NCBI RefSeq assembly: GCF_003704095.1
Contig: NW_020846501.1
Span: forward strand, 496,001 to 560,000
Reading direction: 5' to 3'
From: Pocillopora damicornis
Lineage: Eukaryota
Length of the DNA: 64,000 bases
The notes beneath the pieces are model-generated. The model made no database searches and was not told the origin of the DNA. It saw nothing but the letters and a program-made list of their open reading frames with translations. A program made the position numbers and the translations under genes. This document shows, piece by piece, positions 3,001 to 53,675 of the stretch. Positions within the stretch are counted from its first letter, which is position 1; each line of letters opens with the position of its first letter.

Positions 3001-6000
3001 ACAATCAGTTAGTTTGGTGTGTCGGGGTTTTCTTACCTTAATAAATTACATCAACCAAAAGCTGTGCTGAGAAACACCTGTGATGCACAAGCATTTTATA
3101 TAGGCGTAATTGTTCTACCGGAGCTGCAGACTTCCGTATTTGATAATAAATTTTACCTTCGCTTAGCCCCCTCCCCCCTCCTGTATTTGCTAAATCTCTT
3201 TTTGTCGTGATTTGTTGTCACTGAATATACAAGAAACCGCTCACGTGAAGGATGATCTGTTTCGTGTGGTTTGTACAGAGTCACCTAGCTGAACTTGATG
3301 CTGCTGATATTCCTGAAGAAGTTGTTGAACATGAGGATGTTGTGTTTTCCAATATCAAGGAAATATACGGATTTCACACAAGGTATTAATTTCATGCTAC
3401 TCTTTCCTCTAACTCTCTCCGACTCACGTCATTTAATATGCCATTGCTCTGCTGCAATAGAATTACATATTTGTAGTCTGCGTGGAGTTGAACCGTTGAC
3501 TTTTGGAAGGTGAAATACGTCACAGTTAAGCATCCCGCTAAAACACTTGCTATTCGTTGTTTGTTATTGTCTCTCTGATGATATATCCATTCTTTCTTCA
3601 GACTATTCTTGCACGAACTGGAGGCTTGTGCAAAGAGTCCAGATGACGTTCCAAAGGTTATTGTACGACACGTAAGTTGCATTGCCGTAAAACATATGAA
3701 ATATTTTTAGTTAGTCTCTCTCCTCGACACTAAGTTATCTTTGTACACTTGGCTTCGTTATAACCTTCAATATGAATACGAGCAACATCTTGATTATATC
3801 TGTTGCTATTTTCGTGTAATTTTTAGAAACCAAAATTTGAAATGTACATCAAGTTCCTCGAGGGAAGGCCGCTGGCAAACGAAAAGCTGGAGAGTGAGAA
3901 AACGCAAGAGTTTTGGACGGTGAGTATTCCTCTTAAATAATCACTTTCGTTAATAAGATTTCATTCCGGTGGTTCACTTGTACAGAGATTAATTTACATG
4001 GATAATATGCGAAAAAAAAACCCACGCCAATTGCATTTTTAGTTTGAAGTACATTTAATGTTTTTAAAAAAATTTGAATATTAACTGTTTTTAAACTAAT
4101 GCTAGTTCACCTTTTTGCCGAATCTTTTGAACAATAATTATTCCAACATCAACAGGAGTTCCAAGAAGACACGAAAGATGCCATCTCTCTCTCAGAGTAC
4201 CTTAAAAAACCAGCACAGCGCCTTGATGAATACGTCCTGCATCTTAAGGTTAGAGAGAATGATCGCTAATACCTAGTACCTAACATTGATTTGGAGTACA
4301 GAAGTCTTTGCTAAGTTGTGCTGAGAGCCCCTTTTTCAAATACTTAAACTTTTTTCGTATTTTTATATACTACCTTCTGGTGCTGTTTTTATTTTTGTTT
4401 TTATTTTTTATAGTTATATATTTATATATTTTTTACGTCTAGTCTTTTGTATCGGTATGCATCCAGGCGAAGGGAAAATCGATGTACATTCTAAGCGGTG
4501 TTAATTTTATTTTTACCAAAGGAATTGCTCAAGTTCACTGTACGTGCGAATCTGCAGCATTCGGATTTTCAGGTAAGTCCCTTGTCTTTTTATTAAGCCA
4601 CAATTGACTCTGCCAAGATAAACCCAGTCAACGGTGGTTTCAATAGGACTAGAAAGAAATACAATGGTCATCACTAATCATCGGGACTCTTGCATAAACC
4701 TGATCACGTCGATAAGAGTTTAAAAGAATAATTAACTGTCGTATTCCCTCTGTCAGGTTCTTAACCCATCCCCTCACCCCACATCCCCCAATCCCCCCCT
4801 TCCTCGAAAGGAACATCGGTACGGAGGAGGGCATTGAACTTGTAAAGACCATACTTTTTACGTCTTCCAACGATTTGAAGTTCATAACTCCATTTTTTAT
4901 CTTCTCAACAGACGGCTCTTGAATTCCTAGCCAGTCTATCCCGACGAGGAAATGAAGCAGCACAAAAATTCCACATCGAAGGATATAATGTGAGTAATTA
5001 ACTCGACGCTCAAAAAATGCGATTCTTGAACTCCCCCGATCAGTCACCACCACCTGTGCAAACATCTACATCTTTCTCCTTTCACTGTGTGTATGTATTT
5101 TTTTTTTCTTTTTTTTTGCAAATATAATATTTATCCATGGTACTTATGTCCCACGTTCGTTTGCATTGTGTTAAATTTTTTTTTCCGTCACTGACTAGCT
5201 GACCAACAGAACGACGAACGGATAGACAGACCGACTGATGTATTGACTTACTCACTGACCGTCTGACGGACAGCCTTACTTGATTCACAAGAAAATTATC
5301 CAATGTTATTTCCTTATTGGTTTATTTGTCAATCTGCAGGGTGAGGTTCCTCTTGAAAATCTAGGGAGACTAATCCGCCAGGTAAGCTTCGTAAAGACCT
5401 TCATATAAATCTTCTCTGTTTACATGAAGTATTGAAGATGTTGTGCGTCTTATTTTGCAGGAGGTGGTCTTATTCTGGGAAGAGAAAGCTCGAGGAAAAG
5501 GAAAAGAACGGGACTTGTTCTTGTTCGAGAAAGGAATCGTCAACACGAAAAGAAAAGAAGGAGGAAGAAAATTCATCTTTAAAAACATGCTGAAGGTTTG
5601 ATATAACGACTGTTTGAACTTTCAAGTCCCCATCGATATTTTGTCCAACAGGTTACAAATAGAAACAATTAGAAACAAGGCCCGAGCCATGCTGTAATCA
5701 CAACCCTTACTTTGTTTTACTTTTCCGCTTTCATCCTCTTCGTTGTTTTTTATTTTTACTTGCTATAAGGTTGATCATAAGATTTATTGTTGTAATTTAA
5801 GAACTGAAACTCATTCCATCATGTGTTTAAGTAACTACTTGATAACACGGTTCTGTTGTCGTTCATTAAAATTGTCACTTAATAAGCCACACTCTTATTC
5901 TTTAGCTGACAAGTGGTAATGTTGGTCTGACTGAACATGTTGAAGGAGGTGCCCGTCAGTTCATGGTGTGGGTGGGTACCTCCATGGCCACTGCTCTTGT

Positions 6001-9000
6001 ACTTCACACATTTGAGGTAAGATGATAAAGCTGCTTAGTAAATATTGTTCGAGGGAGAAGGCCAAAACCGTTTATTAGTCATGTGTTGTAATCGTCTGGG
6101 TTAGGGTGGTCCTGAAAAGGGCTCTTGATGGTTACTGTGCCTGAGAGTTCAACATCTTTAGTGGAAATTTTCGTCAGTGTTAAGTGAAGAGTCGTTTGTA
6201 AGTCGAAAGTGATAGAGTTTTACAATGATTTTGTTGCACTCACAATGCCTCATCTAAATACAGAGCCTTTTTTAGAACGATACCAAGAGAATATGAGCAT
6301 TTGTGTCAAGTCTTAGGTGGTGCGAATTTTTTTTAATATAAAGCTTCTTTATTTACCCTTGCCTCTGTTATTTCAGACGAAGACCGAGTGGTCCAAACAG
6401 GTCTGGGTTCGTGAAATCAAAAGGCTGTTACATCTGAGTGAAAGTGAGTTCAAGTTTAAAACCTCTATTTTATTTTCGTTTCTTTTCGTTTCGTCGGCTC
6501 ACATTTCGTTTAACTCTCTCAGAATCATTAAACACTGCTGTTACACCATCTCTGGTGTTTGGTGAACTTGAAGTTCAATTGCCAAGTACTTCAGCCACAG
6601 AAGGGAACCTGGTGACCACAGTCAAAGAAACTATCACTAGTCCCTCTTACTCGCGTTTGATCGCTGAGCTCGAAAAACAGTATGTGGCCATCACACCACC
6701 GGACTCACCTGAACCTCAAAGCCTGGTAAGTGAAATGATACAATATCATCACGTGACGTAGTTTTTTGGTTCGTATCCTGCTGCTTTCCTCTTCTCTTTT
6801 TTTAAGTAACATAGGAACCTGCCATTCGCTCGTTGCATTTTCAGGGATAATTTAGTTGCATACTGGGGCTGTTTGACTGATTGGGTGTGGTCCCTTTCAG
6901 CACATTTCTGTTATGGGAAATGTTCTGTTTTACAACGTGGTCTGCCTCAGTGGGCCATGGGGAGGCGTGTGCTTGTCAGCTGATCACTGAAGAGGTTGAA
7001 AAATGCAATGAGGAGCTCATGTTCACGTGTGATTGTTACTTGTAGAACATTCAACTAGGAGGCACCTACCACTTGTCGGAAGAAACACTGGAACGAGATA
7101 CACGCGAGCGCGTAATCGGCCGCGGTGAACAAGTACGAGTGCTCCGCTCAGGCCGAGATCTCTACTTCGTGCAAACCGTCAAAGATGGAGAAACCAAAGA
7201 GGGCTGGGTTCCTGGAAGCTGGTTGCTAGAAAGAGGTTTTGACGACCAGATTACAGGCGCCCAAGTCCAGGTTGAGCTGGAAGCTGGTTTAGAAGATGAT
7301 ATTGCACAAGATTTGAGTTCAGAAGCGTCTGAACCGGAGCTGCAACGGCTCAAAGAAACTGGGGAAGGTAAATAGCTTTTTCATTGATATCTCCAGCCCA
7401 CGATTAGATAATAAATACAAATGAGTGCAGGTGATATTTTCTTAACCTTAAGATATCTAAGTAGTAGTAATCTTAAGTTTAAGCGCTTTTCGATATATCA
7501 GGCAAGTCTGCACAACGTGACCTGCCGGCCAAAAATAGCTTTGATCCCCTCACCTTGTTTCTTTGTCTATTTCCAAACAAACACTAAATACTGAATCAAA
7601 AGACGTAAAAAAAAAGTTTAAGCCAGCTCTATGGTCTCTCCTTTCTCCAGTCACGCTCGTCGAGGTATTCTTTGTTTAAGGATTCAATTACAAATTCAAA
7701 AAGCTTAATCTTAAATTGCGATGATTCTTGACAATTTCTACTCATTTTGAAGTGATACATAGTGGTGTTCTTAAAGTATTTTAAAACTTGGCTCGACTGT
7801 CGCTCTTGGAACATTCCAAGGATCCCGCGACTCCGTGGGATGGTTTATGATAAAAGAAATCAGTAAATTTTAAAACAGAAAAATCACAAGACTTCAATTG
7901 CAGGGTACTTTGAAACGCTAATGCGGCAATCAATTTAAGCGTTGTTGAAGTTATTGTTTCAAACAATAATATGCTTTGTTAACATCCTTATTCTTCGGTC
8001 GCGTCTCGTTGGTTCAGAATTACTGGGAATATTAATTATGATAATTCTGTTTTCCATCTGCAAGTGATTAATGCAGTGGAATTCACATCGCTCATCGGTG
8101 GAAATTACATATTTATGCTCTATTCTCGAAAGGGTGTTATTTGATTCAAAATAATTGTGTTAGTTGGAGTCACAGTACATCATTTTAATAAAGGCGCGAA
8201 CTGTTTTCGGATTGAGTCGGCTTTCAAATGTCTTCACGGTCAACTCTTTCGTCTTCGCGGAGTTACGGGTCTTCATCAGCTTCTGAAACTCGATCATACG
8301 AAAGGACATCGCGAATTCGTGAACATTCGGCGGACGATCGAAACGAAGGGCGACCGAGAAGGCGACGAGGTAAAAGAGATGCAGTTATTTTTTGTGATTT
8401 TTCTCGTTGAAAACGTCTCTAGTTGAGTATTTTGGTAGCAGTAGGTTCTGAAGAAAATAGTTTCTGAGAGACCTTGACTTTCTTGAATTAATGGCGCGGA
8501 CATCCAACAGTGACAACCAGGATTTTTCCAATACTGTATTACTTATAGGATAAAGTAAAGTGATAGAATGCAATTCTAATTTACCATCTTTTGAACTTTT
8601 TTATCTGCAAACTAATTTGAATTCTGATTAAGTCATTTGCAAAGGTAAGATATTGGACAGATATTGGACCACTCAAACATAAAACAAAGTCGTTTGTAAC
8701 TGTAAATATCACTTCTACCCACAGCTCAGCCAAAGTTTACAGAGGAACTTGAAGATATCGAAGTGTGTGTTGGCCAACCTGCCAGTCTGCGCTGTCGAGT
8801 GGAAGGTGACCCTTTCCCGGACATAGAATGGTTTGTAGATGATGACAAAATCAAGAAAGGGGGAAGATTCGATTTTCTCAGTAACGGAGACCTTGTTACT
8901 CTGAAAATTTCCGAAACAAGTGCCGAAGACGAAGGAGAATACAAATGTACAGCCAAGAATGAAAACGGAATGGCTACCACAAGTGCCGAGCTCATAGTAA

Positions 9001-12000
9001 ATGGTAAGTCCCTTATCCGTCAAACTGATCTTTGTATTCTTTGCGGTTTTTTTTATGGTTGACTGATAAGTGTCGTCAAAATTTTTCCTGTCATAGAAGT
9101 TATGATGAACTCATAGATACGCTATACAATAATTATTTAAAGCGCAAATAGTGTCGCAGGAATGTACACGGGTTATTTTTAACAAGCAAATTTACTTCAA
9201 AGCTCGGTAATTAGGGTTCAGTTATTAGTAAAATTTGGTCTTTACATTTTGATTGCTCTTCTCACGATACTTCCTTCTGGATGCAACATGGGATCAATCG
9301 TTCCAAAATTGTACATCAACGTTAGTATTTGTGCATGCTTCTAAATCATTAGTCAATAATTGAGGTCAATAGAAATGCTCCATTTACTCGACCAGTGTCT
9401 CTTTTGCTCCGCAGGCAGCCTTGGTTTTGTTTTGACGTTTTATTGTTGTTTTTACATTTAAACGACAGTGAGCCTTGTTTTCAATCTGCTCGTTCTTTTA
9501 TATTAAGTGTTCACTTAATGCCCACACCACCGAGACTCTGAACTGAGTGGCAGGCTAATTTCTCATCCATGTGACAAGTACTTGGACGTTCGTGGTTTAA
9601 ATTTCAAGCATGTGAAGGTTAAGTTAAGCTCAACGGCAGGGTGCCTCGCTCATTAACATCAACATTTATTATGCCATGATTTCTTCACACGCAACTACTT
9701 GAAGAACTTAGCTACAGTTTATGCTTTGACTTGCGGTGTCGAGATGTAAAATACAACTGATATTACGTTACATTGTTGGTATAATTTGTCCACACGATTT
9801 GCCGTCTCCGGATAGTCGCGCCACCCTTAAAAGGAATGTTGATCCTTCTGTAGATAACTGTCACTCCCTTTGTTACATTCACTTTACATTATAGCCTCCA
9901 CCAAATTGCGAGGCTGTTCATTTGTTGGCCTAACAGTAGCTGACACTTAAGACCTGGCAGTATGCTGATGTTTTTCGGCTTGCGTGAGTTGCTACTTGAG
10001 ATACATTTCTCGTAAACAGCCTCTTTTGGTGACCTCAATGGAATTAAATCTGAAACATCTCCAGCAAATGTAAAGAATCAAATTTCCTCCAATAACTGTT
10101 TTTAAGTTTAAAGAAGGAAGTAAAACACTTATTTCCTCCATTTACACTCGTTATGTATTAGTTACCGTGATAAAATAGCGATTCGAGTGACGTGGGTTGA
10201 AATTAGCTGAACAGATCTGTGTTGTTGATATGTTTCTTGCGTGACATGCTAATTTGGCGGCATTCGTTCGGTCCTTTTATCTTTGGTTACCTTTTTTTCG
10301 GCAATTTAGATTCATTATACCAGCCTATCAAAATAAATAAATTACACCCCGTAATCATCGGTCAAAATCTCTTTAGTACATAGCACTGTTTCTAGCAGCG
10401 CGATTTTTTTTCTTTTCGATACTGTTATTTATCCTGTATCTGTTTTAACTGGAGGATGCCCACTAAGAAGTGTAAGTCATAGGTTGTCATTTTAGAATCG
10501 TGCTACAAATATGACATCAATCCATTACTTGAAAAGGTCACTTTTTACGTTTTAAATGGCGCGTTGTAAACACGATCGTTTGGATGATCATCTGTTCTTC
10601 ACATTCACAGTATAACCGACATTACTGCGTGTAGCAAGGGACAGGCTCAGCTCATTACAACCCACCAGATGAGACCTTAGTTTTTCTTTCAAAATGTGTT
10701 AGATTTGTGACATGACTTTTAACTTCTTTAAGGCTCGAAACAAGCCGTATGACAGTATCGACGAGTGTGGTGTATGTTGAAATGCAAAATTACATTTTCG
10801 ACTTTCGAGGGCTTATTTGAAAACATCATCACGGGAGCCTTAGAGGCTGAGGGGATAGCGCCGTTAGATGGCCGTCAGAAGCAGAGTGTGGTTGACGTGC
10901 TTTTATCAGGCGTTGCAAACCAAACACTCAGCGACCTTCGGTAGCTCTACTGTTACGAAATGACTGATCAGCCCTTGAAGATCTGAAGGAACCTTTCTGG
11001 CGTTTCATTTACGATTTAGCTTATGAACAATTTTATTTGAATATCGTGCTGATTTTTGACGGCTATGTAAGAATAGAAATGTAAGTATTTTCAACTTCAC
11101 TATAATGCAAGTGACACCAAAGTCTCCTCAACTGTGGTTCAGGTCTATTCAAAGATGTCTCTGTTCAGCTCGTCACTCATTTACCTATTTTCCAATGTTA
11201 TACGTCATGATAAAATAGCCTTGAAAATGTTAAACAGCCTAAATTCTGTTCGATGTTTTAACTTAACATTAATTTTTCATCAGGTGGTTTAAAATAAGAG
11301 TAGTAACATATCCAGACGCCTTCTTCCTTAATTTTAGATCATACATTCTGTTGAACTGGAGAAGATCACATCACTGGCTTCTACTAAACAGTAATAATAC
11401 CCATCCATCGTCGACTAATGTCAAGGCTTGTGTAGCATTGAAAAATTATTTTAATTTGTTGAACTGTTAGCTCGCTTACTGTATATTTGCCGTGCCATTG
11501 ATTAGGGAACCTCAGACTTTTCTGTCATTTTATAATTGTCAAGTTCCTGAACTCTTCATAAATCAAATTGACTTTATTTTGACTTGTCGATTTGATATTA
11601 TTTTTTCTTGCAATTTTTTTCGCGTTATACGATAAGATGAACATTCCACTCGGTTGACCTCGTACAATTCCTCTCAGCTAATTTGCTATGATGTCTTTTT
11701 GAAGTTTCTGATTGAAGTTTCAGTTGAAGTGATGATGATTTTGATAAGTTGGTTTTTAAGAGACAAAAGTGCTTTCCTATATTATTTGTTACCATTTGTT
11801 TATAATTTTATGGGTGATTCATTGTAAATATAATGAGAGGTTACGATAACTGGATAAAACACTTAACATGTTTTTTTGTTTTTTTAGTGTGATAATCGAA
11901 ATAATTGCATCAAGACAACTCACAAATCAGTCTTCATTGTGATTTTTTTCCTTTTCTCGCAATATAAATGTCTCATTCTACTCGAGATTTCTAAGAATTT

Positions 12001-15000
12001 AAATGCTTCTTCGCGTTTTAAGTCGACGATTCGTGAATTCGCACAATTGTATCAGTATTGTGACCGATGACATAATGATATCGAGACGTGAAAACGCGAG
12101 GAAGCGCGGGAACTGTTTTCATGGCTTCCAGACAAACTTTATTGTGTGATTTGACCTGCTGCGACTAATTCTTGCCTTCATACTTAAATTGTTTGCAATA
12201 AAAGTTTGGATTATGTCTATCAGTCAAAATTTCCTCTCCAGCCCATAGCTGAAGTATACTTGAGCAACACGAATACAATTATTACACAGTTGATATTTGG
12301 TTCAAGTTTAGTTTCCGTCTTCCGATGATAATTTTGCCTGTTTTACTTTCCAGCTCCAGCGAAAATCGACAAAGCTCCCAAGTCTCAAACGGTCAGCGTT
12401 GGGGATGTGGTCTCTTTTAAATGTGAAATTTCTGGAAATCCCGTCCCGACTGGAACTTGGTACAAAGGCAAAAAAGAGCTAAAGGATGAAGGAAGAGTGC
12501 TTATAGAAATTGAAGAGGACTTCTCCGAGCTAGAGATTGAAAATGTTGAAACTTCCGACGAAGGAGAATACATCTGCCTGGTGAAAAACGACTTTGGGGA
12601 GGACAAGTGCTCAGTGACTCTTACTGTGAAAGGTGGGAATGGTGTTTTGAGCCGAAACCAAGTTCTTCTTGTTGAAATCACAAATAAGACTGTAACCTGT
12701 TTTATGATTAGAGCCTGATGGAATCACCAACATGAGGAACGCGTATTCAGATCAAACTTTCCTTATCACGTGTCATGACTTAGTGATATTTTACTGTCGG
12801 AAATATGTTATGTGAGAGTTCGTAACTTGTGTATTATTTATGAAATATAAATGCCATGGAACGGAAAAGTACATTTTTTTTCGATTTTCATTTTCACTCG
12901 AGAGGTACAAGAAAAACTAATCTAATCTTGTATTTTTCATTTTTCTTCTTTTCAGTGGGAGGAGATGTAAATGAAAACAACATCGCTGAAGGTGGTGATG
13001 AAGGTGTAGCGAAAGGTAAGTAACTAAACGCTCGGAAAGGAAAAAAAAGACCATTCAGTCGCTATCCATTCAATGGTCATGCACAAGGGTTTCATCACAG
13101 ACTTTTGAGTTCGTGCCACCTGTTACAACAGGATAAACATTACTATATGAAGGTACATGTAATTAGATGTAGCTTTCATTTGAATGGTCACACACAAGGG
13201 TTTCAGTTTTGTTTTGGTTTTGTTTCGGATTTGCTCCGTACTAATGATAGTAAAACTCTTATGTTTCGTACCTATTAACACACTGTTACTCTATCCAGAC
13301 GATGGCGGTGATGGAGACAGTGACGTAGAAAGCAAAGACCTTGACCTTCCGCTTCGAGATCCAATCTCCCTGCGGACGGATAAGAAATTTGATGATGCAT
13401 ACGTTTCTCAGAAAGAACTGGGAAAGTAAGGTTCATTTCTTTTATCTCTATGTGGTCTTATTGTATTTTTATCATTTTACCCTGTGTCTGAATTTAACCA
13501 TGAAATTTTACGTCAGTGGAGTCAGCCAATCGTGTCTTCAGGTACAAACAAACGTACGTACTTGCAGTGAGATGGCAACTGTCTGTTGTGATTGGCATTT
13601 GCTTTTCCGAAGGACTTGGTTGTCCAATCGTAACATTGCAGGACTTTTCAACAGATAGTTGTAGAGTTTTATATTGAAGCTTTCCTCTTCTTCTGTCTCT
13701 TTCCTCCTCTCCGCCAAGATCTTCCTTCTTTTAAAATATTTACTATCTTTACTTCCCAGGGGTAAATTTGGAGTTGTCAAAAAAGTTAAAGAAAAAAGCA
13801 CCGGGACGGAATACGCCGCCAAGTTCCTAAAAATCACCAAGGAGTCAAGGGAAGAAGTTCTGGCAGAAATGCTTATCATGAATAAACTGCACAGTAAACG
13901 GCTGATCTACCTCCATGATGCATACGAGAGACCAAAGGAGATGATTATAGTCTTGGAACTGTGAGTGAAATTAGTTATTACAGTTATTCTGCTTACTGGG
14001 GGATAAAAAGTAGAGGATGGGGGAAACAAGGAAAGATGGTAACAATGCGAGAATGAGACCTAAACTTAGATAATTTTATTACATATTTCAGTTGATCTGA
14101 TGTTAATGGTTTACGAGAAATCGCAGTTTCTGTATTATAGGAATTTGAATTGTTGATGTCTTTAGTGAATGTCAGTATATTGTAATGAACCCGAACAAAA
14201 TACATTAAGATAAGTATTGTTTCTTTCAGCTCATTACTGAAAATGAATGAGAAGATAGTAAATATTGTCATATCTGTTGTGCCCTTTAATAGAATCTCTG
14301 GAGGCGAGCTGTTTGAGAAAGTCTGTAATGATGATAACTTAACTGAGAAAGAGGTTGTGCGGTACATGAAGCAAATACTGCAAGGCGTGGAACATATGCA
14401 CAGGAAACGTATTGTCCACTTGGATCTTAAGGTAAGGGGAATTTCCTAAAGTCATCTTAAAGAGCTGCATTAGGATTAAAGAAATTGAATTCAGTGGTCA
14501 CAAATTAATATTAATAAAAGTAATAAACAGTAACACATGAAAGTGCATTTCAGAAGCTTTCATTTGAACAGCCTCGTGAGCTTTATTAAAGTTTTACCTT
14601 CAGAGGTTCATACTAAAGTCTTCCCTTTCTACTTAGCCTGAGAATGTGCTTTGTGTGATTCGTCCTGATGGTAAGGAGGATCTTAAGCTGATTGACTTTG
14701 GAATGGCGCGTGTACTTGAGCCGGGCAAAACCGTGAAAGTGGCCTGTGGTACGCCCGAATTTGTAGGTAAGAAAACAAGGCATTTATAAGCTTAACTTAA
14801 TAACCTTAGTCAATAAGAGGCCATAGGAGGTAACCTCTCGATTAGACTTGAAATGAGTGCCATCCTGGATATTTCTACATTCCTGGTAGTTACTTACTCA
14901 AAATATTTCTCTCGTACTTTTAGCGCCCGAAGTGATCAGTTACGAAGCCATCAGCCTAGCCAGTGACATGTGGTAAGAATGATTCTTAATCCTTGTTTGC

Positions 15001-18000
15001 TTCATATAAAAACATGGCTGTGCACCATTATAAGGCTGGTACATAACTGATCTAAGGTGTCCCTTTTTTTCTTTTTCTGTTTTCTTCTGCAGGAGTGTGG
15101 GCGTCATAGCATACGTTTTGTGAGTATGATTTTTCTATTTTCCCTTTCTGTCTTAGCTCATCCTTGTATTGTTAAACATAACTTTTCAAGGGTGATTTTG
15201 TATGGTTACGAGTCTTTCAATTGTTGCTTCCTTTTCTTCACCTGCCTAAAATACAAAAACGAAGTTAGGTAGTGATGTCAGATTGTCACTCAATTACAAT
15301 GTTATCTTTTCTAATTTTTTTAAAATCCATTTTACAGGCTGAGTGGTCTGTCACCCTTCATGGGAGACGATGACAACGAGACCATACAGAACGTGTCCAC
15401 CGCTGAGTGGGATTTTGAAGACGAAGCTTTTGACGTCGTGTCAGACATGTCCAAAAAGTTCATTGAGGAACTGCTCATCAGAAGTCCCGAGTCAGTAATT
15501 CTAAATAATTCTTTATTTCATTTCAAAGTCAACTTAACAATCGATACCATGACCACGAGACGTGAGTTCACAATCTCGAACATGAAAGAAAGGTCCGCTT
15601 AAAAACTTCCATATTCAGGAAGCCTGCATATCTGCATCGTTTTTTACGTGACGGTGATATTTTGGCTATAGGTTTATCAACGTTCGAGCAGATTGGGAAG
15701 GAGTTCACACACCTAAACACTTATTCCGTTAGAACAATATTTCCATAAGCCTAGAAGTGTTGTTACAGACCCTATCTTCATGATGTTACCTAGCTAATGG
15801 ATATTTGGTATTACATTCTTAGGAAGAGAAATGATGTTTTCAATTGTATGAACCATGATTGGTTGAAGGTAAGAGAGCAGATTTTTTGCTTGTAGATTCC
15901 CGTATCTCATGTGTATGTCATTGGAATCTTAAGCCTCCGTCTTTCCGCTCCCCCCTCCTCCTCTGCTATTACGGTTCCATTTTTCCGTTGATAGGATAAA
16001 TACCCGTCTAGTACGCGCCCGTGATTTCTCTGCCTTGGTAGACCCTCAAAACTTACAAAAATTCGCTATTATCCCACCTTAGGCGGGACAACTTTTACAA
16101 GCTTAGTTGCTGTCGTGCTCTCCATTTAAACTGTAAAAGTAATATAAAAGAATTAAGTCATTGTTATATTGCGTAAAACTTAGAAAGCAACTTCACGGGC
16201 ATTTTTCTTTTAAGATATACTTATCTTTTACTTTCTTTTCTTTTCCCTAATAGAAAGTCAAAACAATTAGGGCTCAGAAGCTCAGCACGGAAAACTTGAA
16301 GAAATTTATTGCGCGCCGTCGTTGGGCGGTAAGTGTCTGTCAATTTTCAAAATTGTCTTTTCAATGCGTTAGGTGATTATTTTTGTAGTGTTTGGGGACT
16401 GATAGTAAACTACATTCTCGCTCCTCTTTAGTTATGTCAGTCCTTCATTTTGACTGCTTGTTTCCTTACCCCACCCCCCTCCTCCACTTCGTATATCACT
16501 TCATTTTCTCACCCACGAAGATCAGGCAATCTAGGCCAAAACACTTTCCAAAAACTGATCTGTTTTCTGTATTTGTTCCCTGTAGAGAACAGCGAATGCC
16601 TTGCGAGCTCTGAGCCGAATGGGATCCCTTGGTGGGCTGATGGCTGGAGGAGGCAAACCCGGTGGCGCAGCTGCCGCCTCTAAACCTGGTGGCTTCCTCA
16701 AGAAGGTAAAAGAAGAGAAGGCCAAGGAGGAAGTTCAGGAGAAAGCAGCCAAAGCGGAGACGAAGAAGGAGCCATTCAAGGAGGAGGTATCTAAGGAGGA
16801 TCCGAAGAAATTTTCAGCAGGTGATAGCCTCATACCAGAAAGACGGGGCCTGAGTTATTCGGGTCGCCGAAGTCCCGCCTTGAGTGGCAGGAGAAGCCCG
16901 ATGTCTCGGGCAGAAGCCCGTAAGTATAGCACTCCTGATCCACGCGTTGTAATCACGTTCGTCTGGTTTGTGTTGTGTTGTCGATCGCCATTTAACATTG
17001 CATTATCTTAACGGGAGTACCGCTGGGCTATCTCGTCCTTCCTTCTTACCGCCTTTTTTTTCGGGCTGAATCTGATCCTGTTTGCCACGAGGTATTATAC
17101 TTCAATCAGGAGCACTTAAATGGAACCAGCTTTTTGTCATGTTCACCGGCAGTCTGTTGTTCCAAGTGGGCCTCTCAATTTTCTTTCTCACTTGTCAGTC
17201 AAATTTCAGAATCCGCTATTATTTCAATCCGCTTTCTCAAGGCGCTTTTCTGAAAAAGCGATTTTTTTAAATCCGCTTTCTTCACTTCTTTCCACTGAGC
17301 TCTTTACAGTTGATGACAAAGCGATGACAGAAGACGCAAAACTCTTTTGCGCCTGACAGATTCGTATTCATCCCCTTAAAGTGCTGTTATTTTCTCTACA
17401 TTTTTGCTTATTTTGGAAATATGGTTCTTAAAACATTTGCTCTAGAAATCATCATTCCTTTTATTCTTACAACCACGTACTTCATCCAGATATTGTGCGC
17501 TCCAGAAAAGGTGACCCTGCCGGAACTGGTCGAGTGTGTTAATTTTTATTGAGAGAACCGCTGTGGATGGAACTTTGTAAGTGTTACAGTTGACTGTAGT
17601 CGTAGACGATTCAGGGGTAACATAGGCTCTATTCCGTGTAGGTTTTATGTCGCAGCTTTGTTTTTATTTTTTGACTCAAGAGTTCACGGCCGCTCTAGCG
17701 CATTAACCGTTTTTTATTTGTAACGATTACAATGTCTCCTTTTGGGGTGCAGTGACGTTGATATATGAATATCTCAAGAAAAATTTCAACAGCTAACACT
17801 CCCAGCTATATCGATTTTTTCAGTTTGGTTTTCCGGCACGCAAACTTAGCTCAGTTCTGCCAAGTATCAACACCAGTTCATGACGACTTATAGTGCAGTT
17901 AGTAAAGGTCACATTTAATATCCGGTCTGTTTTCCTGCATTTCAACCTTCACTTGAATCACTGTATATTTTTTATTGGATTATCCATATTTAGCTCTGAA

Positions 18001-21000: not shown

Positions 21001-22835
21001 ACTGTTTCTGGAGCCACTTTTGCTGAGCTTCTCGTGACTTTTCTCCCCTATGTCTCTGAAGTCTCGCGTTGACCACGTGTAACTATCACGTGTTTGTTTC
21101 TTTAAGCCCAATCAGTACTTGCCGCCATACGTGCCATTGTGTAACACACACGTATCCATTGTTAATCATTCATCTTATTTCCCATGTAGATGGTATGCCA
21201 CTAGGCCCCCCTGTCTTCATTCAACACCTGACGAATTGCGAGATCATAGAGAACAGCGCCGCCAGATTTGAATGTAAGGTCAGCGGTAACCCTGAACCGG
21301 AAGTGGAATGGTATAAAGACGGGAAGCTACTGAAGGAAAGTAAACAACTCACATTCCTGTACGATGACAACGACAACTGCAAACTTATCATCACTAAGGG
21401 CACAGCAGCTGACGCAGGCGAATACATGGTTGTGGCCAAAAATCCTCACGGTAAAGTATCGAGTAGTGCACGATTGCTTATCGACACGGGTTCAACGGAC
21501 GATGAAACCGCGAGCGAGTCCGAACTCTCCGAACTGTCTGGCTCTGAAGCTGAGGAGAGAACGATGACCCCAAAAGAGGAAAAGATCACGAAGTACTACA
21601 CTGTTCAAGATGAGCTCGGCAAGGGACGGTTCGGTGTTGTGTGCAAGTGTATTGACAATAAAACGGGACGCGCTTATGCCGCCAAGTTCATCAAATGTAC
21701 TGCGCCCAAGGACAGACAAGACGTCATACACGAAGCAGAGATCATGAGTTCTGTTCGGCACAGGCGGCTCCTTCGGCTTCAAGATTTCTTCCAGACACCC
21801 ACAGAGATGATACTCGTCATGGATCTTGTCACGGGTGGAGAGCTGTTTGAGAAGGTGGTAGAAGATGAGTTCATCTCGGAGATAGAAGTGTCGCATTACA
21901 TGAAACAGATAATGGAAGGTGTTCAGCACTTGCATCAGCGAGAAGTTCTCCATTTAGATCTCAAACCCGAAAACATCATGCTTATTAGACCGGACAGTAA
22001 ACAAATCAAGCTTATCGACTTCGGCCTGGCGAGGAAGTACAACCCGAAGGAAAACCTTAAGGTTATGTTTGGAACACCAGAATTTGTTGCCCCAGAAGTC
22101 ATTACATACGAGCGTATTACACCTGCTACGGACTTGTGGTCCGTTGGAGTCATAGCATATATTCTGCTGAGTGGTTTATCGCCGTTTATGGGGGATACTG
22201 ATGCCGAGACCCTGACGAACGTCCAACTGGCGGAGTGGGACTTTGACGATCCTGTCTTTGATGATATCTCAGATGAAGCTAAAGACTTTATCAGCGGTCT
22301 ACTTGTGCTTAAAGCAAACAAGAGGAGTACTGTCGATCAATTACTCAAACATCGCTGGTTCACTATCGAGAAGGGCAAAGGGAAAAAACTGAAGACCGAC
22401 CGTCTCAAAGCGTTTACGGCGCGAAGGAAATGGAGGCGAGCCATCACTGCGATCCGAAGCACGAACTTTTTGAGCCGGATTCTCGGAAGCCGAGGGTCCG
22501 ATGATAAGAAGAGTAGTGGGGGTGGAGGTGGTGGATTGTTAGCCCGAGTCAAAGCAATGCATGCTGCCGGTATTCAAGGTTCGGAAGGAGGTGTTCCCCC
22601 GGCGTCCTCTCCTTTCCTATCACCTGCCTCAGCAGCGTTCAGCACCAGTAACAGCTTCACTTCGGTAACTGTAACAGAAAGAACGCAAACACAAGGAGAG
22701 ACAACTGTTTTAGAGAAGGAGACAGTGACTGTTACCAAAGACGGACAAACAACTGTTAAAGAAAAAGAAACTACAACAAGAATCGGCGAATTCAAGCAGC
22801 AAGATAGCACAACAGAAGAAGTCGATAATGGTTAG
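1..22835 (+). CDS. Obscurin/UNC-89-like giant muscle protein, 5'-partial: Ig-Ig-SH3-SH3-RhoGEF(DH)-PH-SH3-Ig-Ig-MLCK kinase 1-CaM segment-telokin-like Ig-MLCK kinase 2-CaM segment
   Basis: Frame-consistent GT-AG exons: <1-282 (Ig), 617-916 (Ig), 1278-1351, 1929-2122 (SH3, LYTAIEDF..FWLVR..IGFV), 2366-2393, 2501-2751 (SH3, GWLP), DH 2876-2942 (VLNELIESERQYV), 3279-3382, 3602-3671, 3827-3919, 4156-4248 (YLKKPAQRLDEY), 4522-4572, 4912-4989, PH 5340-5381, 5461-5595 (KERDLFLFEK), 5906-6016, 6377-6443 (KQVWVREI), 6523-6725, 7046-7367 (SH3, EGWVPGSW), Ig 8725-9003, Ig 12354-12632, 12956-13015, kinase 1 13299-13425, 13760-13960, 14293-14431 (HLDLK), 14637-14766 (PEN, DFG), 14924-14972, 15093-15119, 15338-15490, 15823-15868, 16254-16328 (KKFIARRRW), 16586-16820/16919, terminal exon 21190-22835. 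Confidence 0.88.
1364..1696 (+). mobile_element. TTAA-flanked MITE (family 1, piggyBac-like) with internal minisatellite
   Basis: Begins TTAACCCTTTACAC and ends GGGGTTAAAGGG; internal sequence is shared with the copies at 27499-27804 and 60695-60869. Confidence 0.7.
1397..1535. repeat. 14-bp minisatellite (CAGTATATGTWTAT), about 10 copies
   Basis: Units start at 1410, 1424, 1438, 1452, 1466, 1480, 1494, 1508 and 1522. Confidence 0.9.
5190..5283. repeat. Degenerate (GACT/GACA)n microsatellite
   Basis: actgactagctgaccaacagaacgacgaacggatagacagaccgactgatg... Confidence 0.65.
8228..8369 (+). CDS. Candidate alternative first coding exon (MSSRSTLSSSRSYG...) for a short Ig-Ig-MLCK isoform
   Basis: caaATG at 8228 with an in-frame TGA just upstream (8213-8215); 47 open Ser/Arg-rich codons; phase-1 donor G|gtaaaa at 8369 compatible with the phase-1 Ig exon at 8725. 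Confidence 0.6.
17310..17356 (+). CDS. Candidate alternative terminal exon (xDDKAMTEDAKLFCA*) giving a single-kinase isoform
   Basis: Pyrimidine-rich acceptor ttcacttctttccactgagctctttacag|TT is phase 1, matching donors 16820/16919; open to TGA at 17354-17356; AATAAA at about 18066. Confidence 0.5.
21190..22835 (+). CDS. Intronless terminal exon: telokin-like I-set Ig + complete myosin light chain kinase domain + calmodulin-binding segment + Thr-rich tail
   Basis: Part of ORF 21069-22835. Acceptor ttcccatgtag|AT at 21190 is phase 1, matching the phase-1 donors at 16820/16919. Motifs: ENSAARFECKVSGNPEPEVEWYKD, LGKGRFGVV, YAAKFI, HLDLKPENI, IKLIDFGLA, GTPEFVAPE, LSGLSPFMG, RLKAFTARRKWRRAITAIR. 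Confidence 0.92.
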
Positions 22836-24110
22836 CGTCAATTTGTCGTCAGAAAATGGCATCGTAAATGAAAGTTTTAAATGAAGAAGAAAGAGATCAA
22901 TCGATGATGTAGACTTTAATGTGAAAATTGTTTACGCAGAGTAATATCTTAAGTTTTGTTCCAATTTCATTTTGCTTTGTAGGTCACACGTAAGTACACT
23001 ACTAAACAGGAGTGCTATACTTAATTAATTATAACAAATATTTGATATACTTAAAAATAATTCTAGTTATGGTCGTTTTCGATGACTATCTGAAAAGAAG
23101 TGGAAACTAAAAGCGGATTTCTGCAATGTTGCCAAATTATTAAGCGTAGGGTTTTTTTTTTCGGTTTTTCGCTTTTCAACTGCGAAAACTGGCCAAAATT
23201 GTTATTTAATCTCTTCAAAAGCGAACTGTGCACTAAAGTGTTTTGTTCTTATATTTGGAGTCTATTTCACATGAGTAGTGATTGCTGTGGGTTTTTTTCC
23301 CGCCGTCCTGGTTGGCTTCTTGTTGTTAATACTGAGTTCTTGCCGTGAAGTAAGCCTATAAAGTTTAAAATCTCAAGCCGTGGAGGGAAGGTTCTTTCAG
23401 AAGCCATAACTTAAAGGAAAGCCACAACATATGTAAAATTGTTAATTAATTTAAAGGTGAAAGAGACCATGGGATAGAATGCCGTATATGGTTATATTTC
23501 TGTTCTCGAACAAACTGTTGAAAAAGGCTTAAATTTACGTTTAAAGAATTCGTATGCCAGCAGGGTGTACTTCTAAATTCACTTACATTTTCTATTCCTA
23601 CTTTTTCTGTGCCTGAACCACACAAGTTGTAGCTATTTCAAGTAATTCTATTCGACGACAGTTAATCACAGCACATTCTTTTCTCGCTTTATCACCTGAA
23701 TTACAAACAATTGTTTTATGTCAAGAAGGACACATGGTTGAAATTAAGTTAACTGTGTGTTATACACAGGAGACTAAAGAACTCCAAGTTGTGCTTTGTA
23801 TGGACTTATTTTCTTATGAAAACAATCATTAGCGCTGTTCAAGTTTAAGTACAGAGGATTATACGGATTATATTTTACAGCTAACAGAAAATTAAGTAAG
23901 ATATTGCACACAGACATGTTTCTTCGATAGCAGATTATTGCGTGACATGCAAATCATGCAGACGTCGTGCTGTTGTCGGATTTTGAATAAATCACTCGAC
24001 TGAAATTTTCTCCATTCTTGGTATTTGTTTGGTAGAGCTAATCTACTTCAGTACCTCGTGAGGTTGTTAGTGTTTTTTTGTGGTCTTATTCGTGTTTACG
24101 AGACGGCAAA

Positions 24111-27100
24111 ATGTCTAATGATGCCAGTAAGTGACTTATTTATATATTCCTCTCTAAGGCGTTAACCGCTTTAAGCTAACTTATTCACTGCTCGGTCTGT
24201 GATTCATGATATCTGTTTTGTCTTCTTTGTGTATTGAGGAAACTTCTTTTCCGAATTTGCTCTTGTTAATCGTAATATTTTGAAAAAGATCTCGTGTTGG
24301 TATTTTGAACATGATTTTCATGTGGTGTTCGTAGCCGAGCCACTAAGAGTTTAGTAGATGCTTTTCTTCGTTCAACTTGGAACTTTGAAATGTTGTTTCT
24401 TTTCAGTAATATTTCCTGTATAACTTGGCCTTCTAACCCAAAACACCTGTACAACCGCCAGTATGACATTAAAGGTTTTTGAAAAACCTTTAAAAAGAAA
24501 AAAAGTTGATGTCTGCATCAGAACAATTAATTACAAACCTTTTGGTCTTACTCTGTATAAAAAATTGTAAAAGTCATCAGCAAATTGTTGAAGCATTGCT
24601 TCAAACCATTGATATTAAGAGGTAATACTTGGCAAAATAAACATTGTTTAACAAAAAACTAACGACAAAACTAGCAAAGAATGAAGTACCGTTTTGTATG
24701 CTGAAGAAATTCTTTTGGATGCATGTTTGATTGATATTTTTTCTGTGAGAATTGTGACTGAATCGCTTTTTTTGTTCTATTAAGATCGTTTATCTCTTGC
24801 TACGTTTTGTGACATTTTCTCTTACAGTTTAATAACACGATTTATAACCCTCATTCAGTGTTAACTGTGTAGTATTTCGAAAGCAAATGTTGCAGATCTG
24901 CTCCATATGCAAATTATTTAAAATACTTCAAAATCCTGAAGCTTATTCAAGTATGTCTTGGTTTGTAATTACTTTCTGATGTTCTGCGCTTTGTTCTGTA
25001 AAGCAAACGTATTAAATCTGTTATTTCATGGAGGAAGAATTGTTTCTACAGAGGTCGCTTATGTTTTTCTGCGTTGAAATTTCGATCACAAGCTTAGAGT
25101 GATGATAAGAACTAATGTTTCCGCCTCTCTTCAGCTAGACGATTGAAAACGTACTATTAGCAGCTGTTATTACATAGGTGACTAAGGTCATCTATAATAT
25201 TATGTTGTTTTGTATAATGCAGTTGTATTCCATTTGTGAAGTAATTTTCTTAACTAACCTGGTCAACGGTCGTTGGCCTAATAGAGTCCAGTGTATCTTA
25301 AAAATGTTACAGACCAGAGGTTTTGCTTCTGAAAGATTTTGTTTCCATTATTAGCTAAGAAATTAGTGAGAAAATTACACGTTGACTGAGGAGTTTTGCT
25401 TCACTTGAAAGTGATCCTTTTCAAGAAAAGCCCTTGAATCACGTGAAAACTGCGTGATAAGCAGGACTGTTAAGTAAAGAAAGTTGGCGTTAGCACTGCA
25501 GTAATAGCCAATTAACGCCAATCTCGATCGCGCGAATCTGGCGTAAAAGCTGCCATAAAAAAAATTATCAAGGTCCGTCAAGGTATTAACTTAAGCCTGG
25601 TTTTCGCTTCATTGTAACCTAGGAGTACATAAAAACGTTGAACAACACCAGTGAAAGCATTAATTTGCTTTCGGTTGTTCATTGTTTCTATGTAATCGTT
25701 TGCTTGCCCTTTTACTCTGTAGAAAGCGACAACCAGGTTGAATTACATGTTGTGTGTATCTTAGTGTCTTTCTTGTGATAACAACTGTAGGTAAAACAGG
25801 CGGTCTTGGAGGAGCAGCCAACACTCCACAAGCCATCGCTAAGCGTTATTCCACTGGAGGAGTTGCTCTTAAACTGGAAAATGTCGACAAATTTTGGGGA
25901 ATCAAGCACGAAATAGCGAAGTAAGGGCAATTCTGCTTTTTGTTATGATGTTTAATCAGACAACTAATTCATTTGTTTTGATGTGCACGATAAAAATTTC
26001 GGTTACCTTGGAATTCTTTAGCAGTCAATTATTCTGCACTAACCTAAAGTAAATTCTCTTATTTCACCATAGGGGTCGTTTCTCAGCTATAAAGCGCTGC
26101 TTAGACGCCAAAACAAAGAAACCTTTTGTAGCGAAAATTATTAAATATGAAGACGACACAGACCGTGAAGATACTCTTCAGGAATTTGACATCCATCGAA
26201 GCATCAAAGGAGACAAAGTGGTTATGTTGCGGGATGCATTCCTCATGAGGAGATATCTTGTCCTTGTTATGGACATGTAAGTGTGACAAAAGTTGGCTAA
26301 GGGAGTACGTCCACTGAATCATCTCATACTTAAGTTCAGGAGTTTCTTTGGTCTGACTGTTTTTGTGTTTTCCTTTGTTTCAAAGGTTGGAGGGACAAGA
26401 TATCCTAAGCTTTGTAGGATCAAAACCCAGGCCGAATGAGGAAGACATTTGTTTTGTAATTCGACCTTTGCTTGATGTAGTGAATTATCTTCATGGCCAG
26501 CAGATTGTTCACTTGGACATAAGGGTATGTGAAGTAAAGCTCGATTGTAAGTGGGTATTTATATGCTTTATTTTTTTCATTTCCTTGTTTGAATACGGGT
26601 CGAACTACCTCCTGGTCTTGTATTTTCCTTTAGGAACTGAAATAGGGTTTTACAGCCAGCTTGTATGTGTAATCACTTTGTTGGTTTCTTTTTACAGCCT
26701 GCAAACATTTTCATCGCCAAAAGTAACTTGGGTGTGAAACTGATCGATTTTGGAAGTGCTCGCCGCATCAAGAACTGGAAGGAAGGAGACATGTTGGCCA
26801 TTGTTAGTTATGTTGCATTTACAGGTGAGTTGCACAAATCAGAATCCACTTTTGTAATAACCATTGACACAAGGGCGTGGTTCATTTAGCGCATGAGTTA
26901 TAGTGTATAAATATAGAATAAGAAAGATAATATAATATAAGATAAGAAATAAATAATGGACAGAATAGCGATTTGGAGAGCAAGCAAGTAATCAGGCCTA
27001 GAAGAAATTTTCTGTTATCAAAGGCTATCGTGAGACCAGTTTTTATCTGAGGAAATAGTCTGCTCTACACTTGCTATTACCGCTTTATAAATTACAATAG

Positions 27101-39538: not shown

Positions 39539-40721
39539 AACAAAAAAACTTCCTCAAAACCAATGTACAAAGATGCCGTAACTCTTAAGAGGAAACCAAA
39601 ATATAGGAGATAGCAAGATTTGGTCAAAAGGAAATGAGACCTAAGTGAGACTGTCGTTTTTCTTAACGAGCTGGTTCTCGAAGAAAGAGCGCTTTATAGA
39701 AGAAAGAAAGAGATACGAGAATAACAGACAAATCTCAGAAACATTTTTGTATTTCTTAGTGGATTGGGAATAAAGTTTCTTTGACCACTCCCGATAGTGG
39801 AGAGATTTGGACTGTTGATTTAAAACTTGCACGTAGGATAAAGAAAGTGTCACTCTTCTTTTTTATTGATCATTGACGGTTTGATTGTTGATTTTAAATC
39901 GTTTGAGGCTACATGTACGTTAACTTTAAAACAAACTTCAACTTGATGCATAATTATTATTGATGAGCCCCAGTGGAGCGAAATATGATTGCATTCTGGT
40001 GTATGTCAATTAAAAGTCGTGCGAACCTCGTTAACAATCGCTGACCAAGATGAATGCTGACACAGGCGCACCATTGGGTTACTGACCGTCTTAGCGTTTT
40101 CTTGAATAACCTAGATATGCTTTCGTATCAAATGGCTTGTTTTGATGAACCCGACAAATTTTAGCCTCTTTGTGGATACTGTGGACGCTTATTCGCACGT
40201 GCTTGAGAAATTCTCGCCATTTGTGATAAGCTCAAATCCATTCAAATAAAAACAAATCTTTGTGTTTTTATACACAAAATTATTAATTAGTTACATATTT
40301 CTATTTTTAAATTTTAGTCCTATTATCAAAGCAGAATTAGATTAGCGCATTTACACTAAGTTTTTCCAAATAGTTCCCTATTAATTTATAAATCATCATT
40401 GTCACCAACAGTGGATTAAAATGTCCTTCAAATTCTTGCTGACGCGTCTCCAGGTATGAAAGTTATTGGCGACGGTGAGCGTGAAATTGTGCTTTAGAAC
40501 AGCCTGAATTAACGCGAGCTTACCCCTTAAACTCTAATAATAACTTCGAACTGCTATAGATGATACTGTCACAATATCTTAGAAGAACTTACCTCTAGCT
40601 CTGTCCGTACTCGCAAAATTGTCTCATGTGATGGCTAGCTTGCTCTCGATTTGTGTAGCTAGTAAAAGAAAATAAACCGCTCGAGTAACCAGTCAGCGGT
40701 TCACTTCAAGAATCAACCAAC

Positions 40722-46700: not shown

Positions 46701-46751
46701 GCGTCAGTGATCGACAAGAAAAGACAAATCGATTGTTCTCTCGTGAGATGA
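40722..46751 (+). CDS. PIGA: Phosphatidylinositol N-acetylglucosaminyltransferase subunit A (GPI anchor biosynthesis)
   Basis: 14 exons: 40722-40759, 40843-40933 ([21 protein letters not shown]), 41365-41430, 41686-41808, 42158-42333 ([11 protein letters not shown]), 42763-42878, 43245-43352 (VSRLVYRKG), 43666-43772 (GGDGPK), 43900-43982 ([21 protein letters not shown]), 44200-44285 ([13 protein letters not shown]), 45425-45552, 45967-46022, 46222-46321 (TM), 46620-46751. Confidence 0.96.
43464..43598 (+). mobile_element. TTAA-type MITE family 2 copy in a PIGA intron
   Basis: TTTCCTTGTAAATTAGTTATGAGAATTTGGTGTTAGATCAAGATAACAACTT...AAAGGGTTAA; inverse match to 62645-62842. Confidence 0.65.
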
Positions 46752-47752
46752 CATTTGCAAAACGTACGCGATGCGAAATTACAAGGAAGTGTTATGTTAA
46801 AGCTTGAGATTAACATTGAGGGGCAAATATAAAATAAATATTTGAAATATTATGATCCTCTGTGAGCGAACATTTTGTATAGGTAATCGCAAGAGGCCGA
46901 GTAAAATTAGAGTAGTTTATTGTAACATGTATGGAAAAACTACTTAATGCTGATTGGCGAAGACAGATGGCATTATCTATTAATTTTGGTAATTATTCCG
47001 GAAGAAATTACTCGAAATTGAAAACAATGAAAAAAGCTCAACTTTAGAAACACAAGCTGTGAAAAGAAATTTCATATCTACAAGCAGCCATATATTATTT
47101 TGTTTATCACATAAACACAATAGCCCTTTACTGACAAGAAAAGTCAACTTTTTTAATGTATGAAAATAAAAGGATCGACAATCCCCCGAATAAAAGTCGT
47201 AAGGTGCGTTAGTGCTAAGGCTCAAGACGAAAAATGCGTTGAAACACCTCAAAAATGAACAATGGACGTAGTTTTCAATATACAAAATTCTCAGTTATTG
47301 ACTTGGTTTTTACCGACAAAAGAAATAATTCAGGTAAACGACCAAAATCAGCCCGTGGCAAATCTTCCAGTTGTCGATTTTCGTTCCCAGCCGCGAGAAA
47401 CGCCATTGAATACGAAGCTCTATGTTTTTCTTCCAGTATTTTGGTTCCTGTCCTTCTAGGAAAATTAGAACGTCACCGCCTGTGAGCGATACGGATTTTT
47501 CAGTGTTTTAGCAGCCACAATCCAAAAAATATTCGACAAACGACGTTAAATTAGGAATGATTTTGCCGTTCATTCATCAACCTGACCAAGTGGCGCGAAA
47601 GGCGAGTGATGTGTCATCAGCGATATAGAACACGTGAAAAAATACGATATTCTTTCACGTGTGCTGTTACGGCTTTTGTCAGGGCTGGAAATCCCTGTCT
47701 AATACCGTGGTTTATATGATGAAATCAAATTTTTACCTTTATATTGTAAACA

Positions 47753-47910
47753 AGTGATCGCATAAGGCCGAGTGAAATCAAGGATTAGTGTCACTTGTGT
47801 TTTCAGAAGTTGCAGAAATTGTCCGCGTTGCTGCGCGACACGGCCTATTTCTGGAATTTTCTAAAACTCGCGTGATATTGACTGTTAATTTTACTCGGCC
47901 CATGCGATTA
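47753..47910. mobile_element. Palindromic foldback/MITE-like repeat
   Basis: Inverted arms GTGATCGCATAAGGCCGAGTGAAAT / ATTTTACTCGGCCCATGCGATTAC around a GC-rich centre; a lone arm copy (GTAATCGCAAGAGGCCGAGTAAAATT) lies at about 46883-46908. Confidence 0.7.
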
Positions 47911-48249
47911 CATAAACTTATATAATTGTATGCACTGTTATATATACTTATCAAAGACAAGAGTGATTATGAAACCAAACAGATTTCGTGAACTAGCCGG
48001 GGATCAAGGGGGTGATTGTCCCAAAGATTCAGCCTCCCTTTCATGACTAAATATGCCTCGTTTTGGTTACAGTATACGGCTGTAATGGCGGAGGTTTATT
48101 GTCTCTAACTGACAAGATATGTTCTCTGATTAATTTTCCCCCATAGCTTGAAGTATACTTGAAGGATACTTTTTATGGCGCCGTATACTGAATTTTGTGG
48201 TCTTAAGCTCACTTAAATCAAAGTGTTGGACGCTATTGAAGTGGATAAA

Positions 48250-53221: not shown

Positions 53222-53514
53222 CCATCGTACAGCAATTCATTTGTGCAAATCTACTATCAGAGTTTGTAGACATCTGAAGGTAGTCAATCCAAAACTCTTA
53301 AAATCTGCATCGCTTAAAAGTTCATTAGTCAAACCTAGTGGACGTAAACAAATCAAAGTTTGGATTATTCAATGGTATGCAGCATAACACCATTGTAAAT
53401 TTACATGTTCTGTAGCCCTACATGTAAATAAGCAAATTGGTTTAACATTGGAATGATAGGTGATTAAAATATTTTATTTTTATATCTGCACAGCTAGTTG
53501 TGAGTAATATACAG

Positions 53515-53675
53515 TAGCCTCTGCATAGGCCCTCATTATTAGGACTTCGGCACAAGTGTTTCTTCAACTGCAGGAAAGTATGAAGCCTGGAACAACCCTA
53601 GCAGGGGGGAGAGGTCTGTGAGGCAGAGAAACACGCATCTTGCAACCCCAATAATGGGAGTGTGCTTGCAGGCAA
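53515..53675. mobile_element. Short MITE with 9-bp target-site duplication (Mutator-like)
   Basis: Imperfect inverted termini TAGCC..GCA..CATTATT.GG / CCAATAATG..TGCAGGCAA, flanked by direct repeats AATATACAG at 53506-53514 and 53676-53684. Confidence 0.65.

Follow-up and report, generated by a model that had tools for sequence, protein, structure and literature searches.

A coral connectitin exon that encodes a whole kinase without introns, and its probable origin by ancient intron loss in place

Connectitin and the coral locus

Connectitin is a giant gene of the titin family in cnidarians. In coral and anemone it comprises spectrin repeats, many Ig domains, a RhoGEF/PH/SH3 region, and the C-terminal kinases A1, A2, and B; in jellyfish and hydra it has two kinases, and Trichoplax is listed with A1 and A2 (Hanashima et al. 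2025, PMC12198301). The main text of that paper contains neither "intron" nor "retro" (0 matches). Intron losses mediated by mRNA that are adjacent and internal, with the 3' introns kept, have also been documented (Sharpton et al. 2008, PMC2395259). Neither the gene with its three kinases nor the loss mechanism is new, but literature searches yielded no account of the loss of introns from A2, a point on which supplements 2-4 and the figures of PMC12198301 may have more to say. What goes beyond the main text of the connectitin paper is the lack of introns in the A2 exon, the dating of that exon, and a conserved stop codon at its donor.

The window analyzed here, 64,000 nt of Pocillopora damicornis contig NW_020846501.1, contains a connectitin gene whose kinases K1, K2, and K3 correspond to A1, A2, and B of Hanashima et al. 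(Table 1). The gene content fits this identity. The three kinases are linked by RNA joints and placed by trees, and upstream of them are many Ig domains and a RhoGEF/PH/SH3 region, in which SH3 was found by Pfam and DH/PH matched only weakly, in exon-wise tblastn to the medusozoan DH/PH/SH3 region. A SESTD1-like spectrin match (E 4e-10) and additional weak spectrin matches lie 45-60 kb upstream on the same strand and are candidate parts of the same transcript. The SEC14 domain that connectitin has at its N-terminus had no match in the 21 of 62 upstream ORFs that were scanned (sequence back to contig position 426 kb).

Table 1. Features of the connectitin gene, in window positions
Feature	Position	Strand	Basis and remarks
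Upstream part of the same gene	1..13015	+	Ig, SH3, RhoGEF/PH-like, and Ig exons; Pfam SH3 and I-set, weak tblastn
Kinase A1 (K1), MYLK type	13299..16919	+	10 exons, 9 introns, plus tail; RNA joints, tree
Intronless internal exon	21190..22830	+	1641 nt, phase 1-1; RNA contig joints, splice sites, frame
Telokin-like I-set Ig domain, Ig(c)	21207..21482	+	Pfam I-set E 6e-24
Kinase domain K2	21597..22361	+	Pfam Pkinase E 2e-74
Regulatory, calmodulin-type tail with motif G[GA][FL]LA[RK][VI]K	22390..22560	+	Motif found in anthozoan-type K2 tails
Downstream intron, begins GT-TAG	22831..25790	+	Stop codon in frame at 22833-22835; RNA contigs run across the intron
Kinase B (K3), obscurin-B type	25791..29332	+	9 exons, 8 introns, ends at stop codon; RNA joints as far as 28180, tree
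K4, tandem paralogue of K3	32447..39560	+	Model with approximate ends; sister to K3 (100/98)

The exon that carries K2 is intact, in frame, and spliced between two other kinases. It encodes the telokin-like Ig, an acidic linker, kinase A2, a calmodulin-type tail, and a variable tail, and the frame is open from the acceptor at 21189|21190 to the TAG just beyond the donor. A preliminary description had noted an intronless kinase 2 over 1646 nt, in frame with the Ig before it. The lack of introns and the frame are borne out, but the figure of 1646 nt applies to the read-through form rather than to the spliced exon. RNA evidence consists of contigs from four runs of four studies, placed on the genome. 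The joints 16919>21190 and 22830>25791, both GT..AG, are present in all four runs and connect the exon to K1 on the upstream side and to K3 on the downstream side. The assembled exons encode Ig-Ig-K1-tail-Ig-K2-tail-K3-stop, with the linkage of the three kinases taken from joints on separate RNA contigs. The label "telokin-like" given earlier is apt, as telokin is the best single-domain PDB match of Ig(c) (72.6 bits). This Ig scores 107 against the Ig preceding the Sanderia kinase and at most 25 against other Sanderia Igs. The catalytic motifs of K2 are intact by sequence (AAK lysine, HLDLKPEN, DFG, and APE), and the basic amphipathic tail is of the calmodulin-regulated MLCK type. Judged by homology, it is likely that the protein acts in a muscle scaffold as a calmodulin-regulated kinase of the myosin-light-chain type.

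That the exon is an assembly artefact or a silent pseudo-exon can practically be discounted. Its support comes from RNA contigs only, but it is spliced in every run, and the two differences listed inside it are both synonymous while the next intron has many differences and indels. Orthologous ORFs on other long contigs carry similar intron-derived leaders, and the K2 kinase is 77% identical to that of Nematostella. An unexpressed or neutrally evolving exon had been named at the outset as a refuting result; the exon is expressed and conserved.

The sister kinases have kept nearly all of their introns. K1 and K3 have eight intron sites with equal phases in common. K1 has a ninth (after DM-W), which three A-type paralogues at other places in the genome possess as well. 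The earlier statement that K1 and both downstream kinases share eight sites therefore holds for K1 and K3; K4 is modelled with five internal sites, and its donors at 32540 and 36560 were additionally read from the sequence. Two more MLCK-like genes in the genome retain the same sites: C3599 92000-106000, which has two kinases, and C4052 252000-262000. Occupancy is 9/9 in K1, 9/9 in the first kinase of C3599, 8/8 of those tested in the second, and 8/9 in K3; in the C4052 kinase 8/9 donors are seen, and the ninth site is recognized by its acceptor. K2 occupies 0/9, compared with 8-9 of 9 in its sister domains. These nine sites are adjacent and span kinase and tail. The intron after the Ig, which is retained in one of three paralogous A-type domains of the genome, was probably lost together with them.

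The size of the K2 exon is by itself not unusual in this gene. The 22 other coding exons between 8725 and 29332 average 135 nt, from which about 12 introns would be expected in 1641 nt, with a Poisson probability of 5e-6 for none. However, exons farther upstream in the same gene are far longer, for example an open frame of 1484 aa with 14 Ig domains (L020:2980-7431). It is thus the absence of ancestral introns, and not the length, that needs to be explained. Many exons of about 1 kb with three Igs are also found upstream in the same gene (L016, L021, and L022) and are possibly exon fusions too.

Age of the second kinase and its ancestral introns

The distribution of K2 and its position in trees show that the kinase tandem is older than corals, and it is probably older than cnidarians. 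Orthologues of the Ig and K2 fall into five groups (A to E), with identities of about 81-93, 75-78, 67-74 (including Nematostella), 65-69, and 49-51%. Four groups have intact ORFs from Ig to tail on contigs of 35 kb-4.4 Mb, which are too long for transcripts. The anemone-like group is found on contigs of 7.5-13.9 kb, where the ORFs end in an intron-like run-on. Group E, at about 50% identity, appears by tree position to represent octocorals. All anthozoan-type orthologues found are intronless. Orthologues with differing subsets of introns had been named earlier as the sign of piecemeal loss, and no such intermediate is among them. The searches favor unbroken ORFs, and the one for short relatives recovered none of the proteins from hexacorals; anthozoan forms that retain some introns could therefore have been missed.

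Outside the anthozoans, related arrangements are found. Sanderia malayensis (P0137) and a medusozoan-like spliced transcript (L017) have the same Ig and kinase followed by kinase B, with no K1, and Trichoplax (P0125) has a tandem kinase-Ig-kinase. A metagenome scan gave 568 pattern matches and one locus, L017, which as a spliced transcript is uninformative on intron positions. The linker before the Ig in L017 (about 2250-2500) is weakly similar to the K1 tail (16586-16919), with 34/1000 shuffles reaching the score (411/1000 for Sanderia), and is perhaps a remnant of a lost K1. The coral has no FN3 before K1 and no Ig-FN3 between kinases A and B (12633-13298 and 22831-25790), whereas L017 has both an FN3 and an Ig-FN3 of this kind.

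Phylogenetic analysis places K2 with the medusozoan kinase and not with K1. A quick tree of 66 rows was followed by trees of 36 and 39 chosen rows, omitting near-duplicates and long SPEG and arthropod rows. No full-length cnidarian connectitin was found among 137 new proteins from a profile search of 50% representatives, a search dominated by multi-Ig giants, and the trees therefore lack a K1 orthologue from another anthozoan. In the 39-row tree with tails, K2 and medusozoan kinase A form one group (11 rows, 92/85; 73/80 without tails; the clade is not starred), which Trichoplax kinase 2 joins next (91/90). K1 groups with cnidarian MLCK-like paralogues (96/92), Trichoplax kinase 1 (95/89), and bilaterian MYLK (97/91) in the 39-row tree. 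A clade of K1 and the intronless K2 rows is rejected (AU p=0.0047; 0.0019 for kinase domains; 1.7e-9 with tails), as is one of the K1 group and K2 (AU p=0.009), while a clade of K2 and bilaterian MYLK is not (AU p=0.11). The expectation that kinase 2 would prove sister to kinase 1/MYLK thus fails for K1. The K2 tail has 23/30 identities to the medusozoan kinase A tail and 12/30 to that of K1, and it is of the medusozoan-A/Trichoplax-2 type rather than the MYLK type. In a published supplementary matrix, the identity of Aurelia kinase A is 0.611 with A2 of the coral Acropora and 0.653 with anemone A2, compared with 0.531 and 0.500 for their A1 (PMC12198301). The agreement of the tree, the tail identities, and this matrix shows that the K1-K2 tandem predates corals and probably cnidarians.

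Short ORFs from medusozoan-like sources suggest that the K2 orthologue there has introns. When short relatives of the Sanderia Ig region were sought, 17 proteins were recovered, including ten exon-sized ORFs of medusozoan-like type that are each nearest to Sanderia or L017. All seven that reach the Gly loop cease to match at ELGR, and what comes next is Y, F, or a stop, in agreement with an AG|GT donor in phase 2. One of the seven begins at the matching acceptor, and the other three of the ten break right after the Ig. The intron after the Ig varies among these ORFs (present in four, lacking in six), showing that single losses do occur. In addition, the Sanderia model jumps from a phase-2 site before KR into the Gly loop of kinase B, which implies a second ancestral intron. 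These breakpoints and the one gene model provide indirect evidence for two of the nine kinase sites and for the site after the Ig. The 5' edge of the coral K2 exon lies within one codon of the start of matching in the medusozoan-like ORFs.

K1, its tail, the telokin-like Ig, and the acidic stretch (13299-21500) mirror the C-terminus of bilaterian smooth-muscle MYLK, and K3 groups with obscurin kinase B (100/100). The trees give no clear link between K2 and obscurin kinase A. The MYLK and obscurin/SPEG parts are joined in one protein in the coral. MYLK and obscurin may be the halves of one ancestral gene, with the triple-kinase gene as the unsplit ancestor. An obscurin-like model of Ptychodera (P0121) has three kinases.

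These results largely refute the first origin that was proposed for the exon. Capture of a retro-exon produces a chimeric retrogene, in which a coding block that has no introns is joined by splicing to the exons of a host gene without loss of frame. The preliminary description envisaged that a processed MLCK cDNA had entered in frame behind the telokin-like exon and given corals an extra kinase; its source would have been K1 or some other MLCK gene. The intronless, in-frame state of K2 resembles such a captured exon, the region from K1 to the acidic linker has the look of a MYLK C-terminus, and the test against bilaterian MYLK leaves that grouping open. A GG-[FL]L-x-[KR]VK motif was also cited, and K1 and K2 do both carry it, similarly spaced from the calmodulin-type tail. 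The overall tail similarity of the two, however, is reached by 172/1000 shuffles and is not significant. Against capture are the rejected groupings with K1, the type of tail, and the lack of a closer parent among 40 matches in the genome. Unlike a captured retro-exon, K2 has neither a separate sister parent nor a new position, and its orthologues at the same place in medusozoans appear to have introns. What it shares with a retrogene is the lack of its relatives' introns. This origin is hardly credible. Nor did retroposition create a double-kinase protein, which had been suggested: K2 is ancient and sits at the same position in medusozoans. The product has three kinases, not two.

Probable loss of the introns in place

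The ancient Ig-A2 module probably lost its 9-10 introns in place, by one event of cDNA recombination in the anthozoan ancestor. The Ig and kinase A2 form an old module of connectitin, flanked in the spliced transcript by kinases that are rich in introns. Reverse transcription of mRNA from the gene itself would have supplied a copy that recombined with the locus, removing all of the module's introns at once; it is the pattern that suggests simultaneity. Crossovers within the Ig exon and the tail exon would have preserved the native upstream acceptor and spared the introns of K1 and K3. The template was conceivably a transcript ending after K2. Such exact loss of 9-10 adjacent introns, next to domains whose introns are almost all still in place, is the kind of pattern attributed to cDNA recombination. 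Alignment of K2 with K1, its tandem paralogue at 52% identity, shows no gap at 7/9 sites, as precise loss without indels predicts, and small gaps close to the two that lie past the domain. The match of the 5' edge to the medusozoan exon edge is what retention of the native acceptor predicts and what a fresh insertion does not.

Recombination with cDNA was the second route offered in the preliminary description, and it remains the best fit, but it is not a simple loss at the 3' end, and it made no new protein. The 3' bias of mRNA-mediated loss is absent, as the eight introns of K3 are retained, which speaks against a simple poly(A)-primed loss; the bias would be seen only with a transcript ending in K2. 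The case resembles those in the text of Sharpton et al. (PMC2395259) in that several adjacent introns were lost precisely from an internal island while 3' introns were kept. It differs from the cases in that text in affecting 9-10 introns that make up a whole Ig-kinase module, in a giant-protein gene of animals, with fixation across deep anthozoan lineages; the event itself is reconstructed.

Stepwise loss along the anthozoan stem, or separate loss in hexacorals and group E, seems unlikely. It would accommodate the best trees, which pair group E, itself intronless, with the intron-bearing medusozoan rows as its sister (97/87; 88/80), a position that would mean two losses. The variable intron after the Ig and the other very long exons of the gene are compatible with it. 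The exon has phase 1 at both ends and can be skipped in frame, and selection may have favored a one-exon cassette of this kind; however, no skipping joint was found among the 15 joints examined of 23 in RNA contigs. A single loss is not rejected (AU p=0.37 and 0.18). L017 lacks a tail motif that is common to group E and hexacoral K2. Stepwise loss also has to contend with the retention of essentially all sites by the sister domains and with the lack of intermediates among the orthologues found.

After so long a time, conversion in place can hardly be distinguished from local replacement by a processed copy. In the latter case a processed Ig-A2 copy would have been inserted into a neighboring intron, followed by deletion of the old intron-bearing exons, perhaps together with the Ig-FN3. 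An intronless end state is expected from this, and the coral is indeed without an Ig-FN3, whereas the medusozoan transcript has one after kinase A. On the other hand, a new acceptor would be needed at exactly the ancestral exon edge, and tblastn of 17000-21189 and 22836-25790 found no remnant exons. Neither a poly(A) tract or remnant nor a target-site duplication is visible at the exon edges, though the event is too old for either to be expected. Local replacement is rather improbable.

It is also very improbable that A2 has been intronless since its birth before cnidarians, as an old retro-duplicate of A1, and that medusozoans regained introns by conversion from a paralogue. The relationship of K1 and K2 as tandem paralogues would agree with such a birth. 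In C3599, however, the paralogous gene with two kinases has every intron tested in its second kinase, and the regain of introns at exact ancestral sites is a rarer event.

The in-place loss is the preferred explanation, and it has some bearing beyond this gene. K2 is a clean and very old case of domain-wide intron loss inside a giant gene that otherwise conserves its introns, and its history corrects a tempting retrogene reading. The exon reveals no new biochemical system, but it could serve as a rare genomic marker. If group E represents octocorals and the loss was single, it is a rare genomic change that bears on anthozoan relationships. The position of Ceriantharia has been called enigmatic (PMC6465557, PMC3903554).

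The stop codon at the donor and other features

The stop codon directly after the donor is conserved and points to an overlooked isoform with two kinases. RNA contigs that read through the intron, over 22803-25819, are present in 4/4 runs, and a K2-terminal isoform formed by intron read-through is possible. The orthologous ORFs end in Gly-stop in 12/12 representatives of group A, 2/2 of group B, and 3/3 of group D, a count that omits one frameshifted and one short member of group D. In contrast, Gly-stop occurs in 0/4 group C proteins, and in the 20 group E proteins listed the stop is not at the donor. The downstream intron contains four poly(A) signal hexamers, but the RNA contigs continue to K3.

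A more ambitious history can be outlined, although it is doubtful as a whole. One RNA-templated event in the anthozoan ancestor, with a template ending right after A2, would have erased the ten introns of exactly one domain. It would have left a nearly homoplasy-free marker that unites hexacorals and octocorals and is able to place Ceriantharia. It would also have left a one-exon kinase cassette, whose donor is a conserved stop switch between isoforms with two and three kinases.

K4 lies downstream of the K3 stop codon. Its first exon contains a separate ATG at 32482 as well as a phase-1 acceptor, in frame, at 32446|32447. K4 may be a separate gene or an alternative terminal module, and in the latter role it may be an alternative last kinase spliced from the donor at 22830. 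Between K3 and K4, degenerate tandem repeats of roughly 200 bp surround a 100-N gap (30000-31600; gap 31348-31447). The last intron of K4 includes a simple repeat (38400-39230) that is open in all three frames and rich in Ser, Gln, and Val. Short intronic stretches at 27550-27650 and about 18600-18810 attract many unrelated contigs, as a dispersed repeat would. A deep contig near 18700 in one RNA run is either a repeat or an unrecognized exon.

The rest of the window holds other coding sequences. On the forward strand, 40300-60000 contains fragments that we take to be like a PIG-A-type glycosyltransferase, a galactosyltransferase (48217-53218), and an LSm protein (59307-59621). On the reverse strand, two tandem long single-frame ORFs (61400-62533 and 62905-63999) presumably resemble Mab-21/cGAS-like nucleotidyltransferases.
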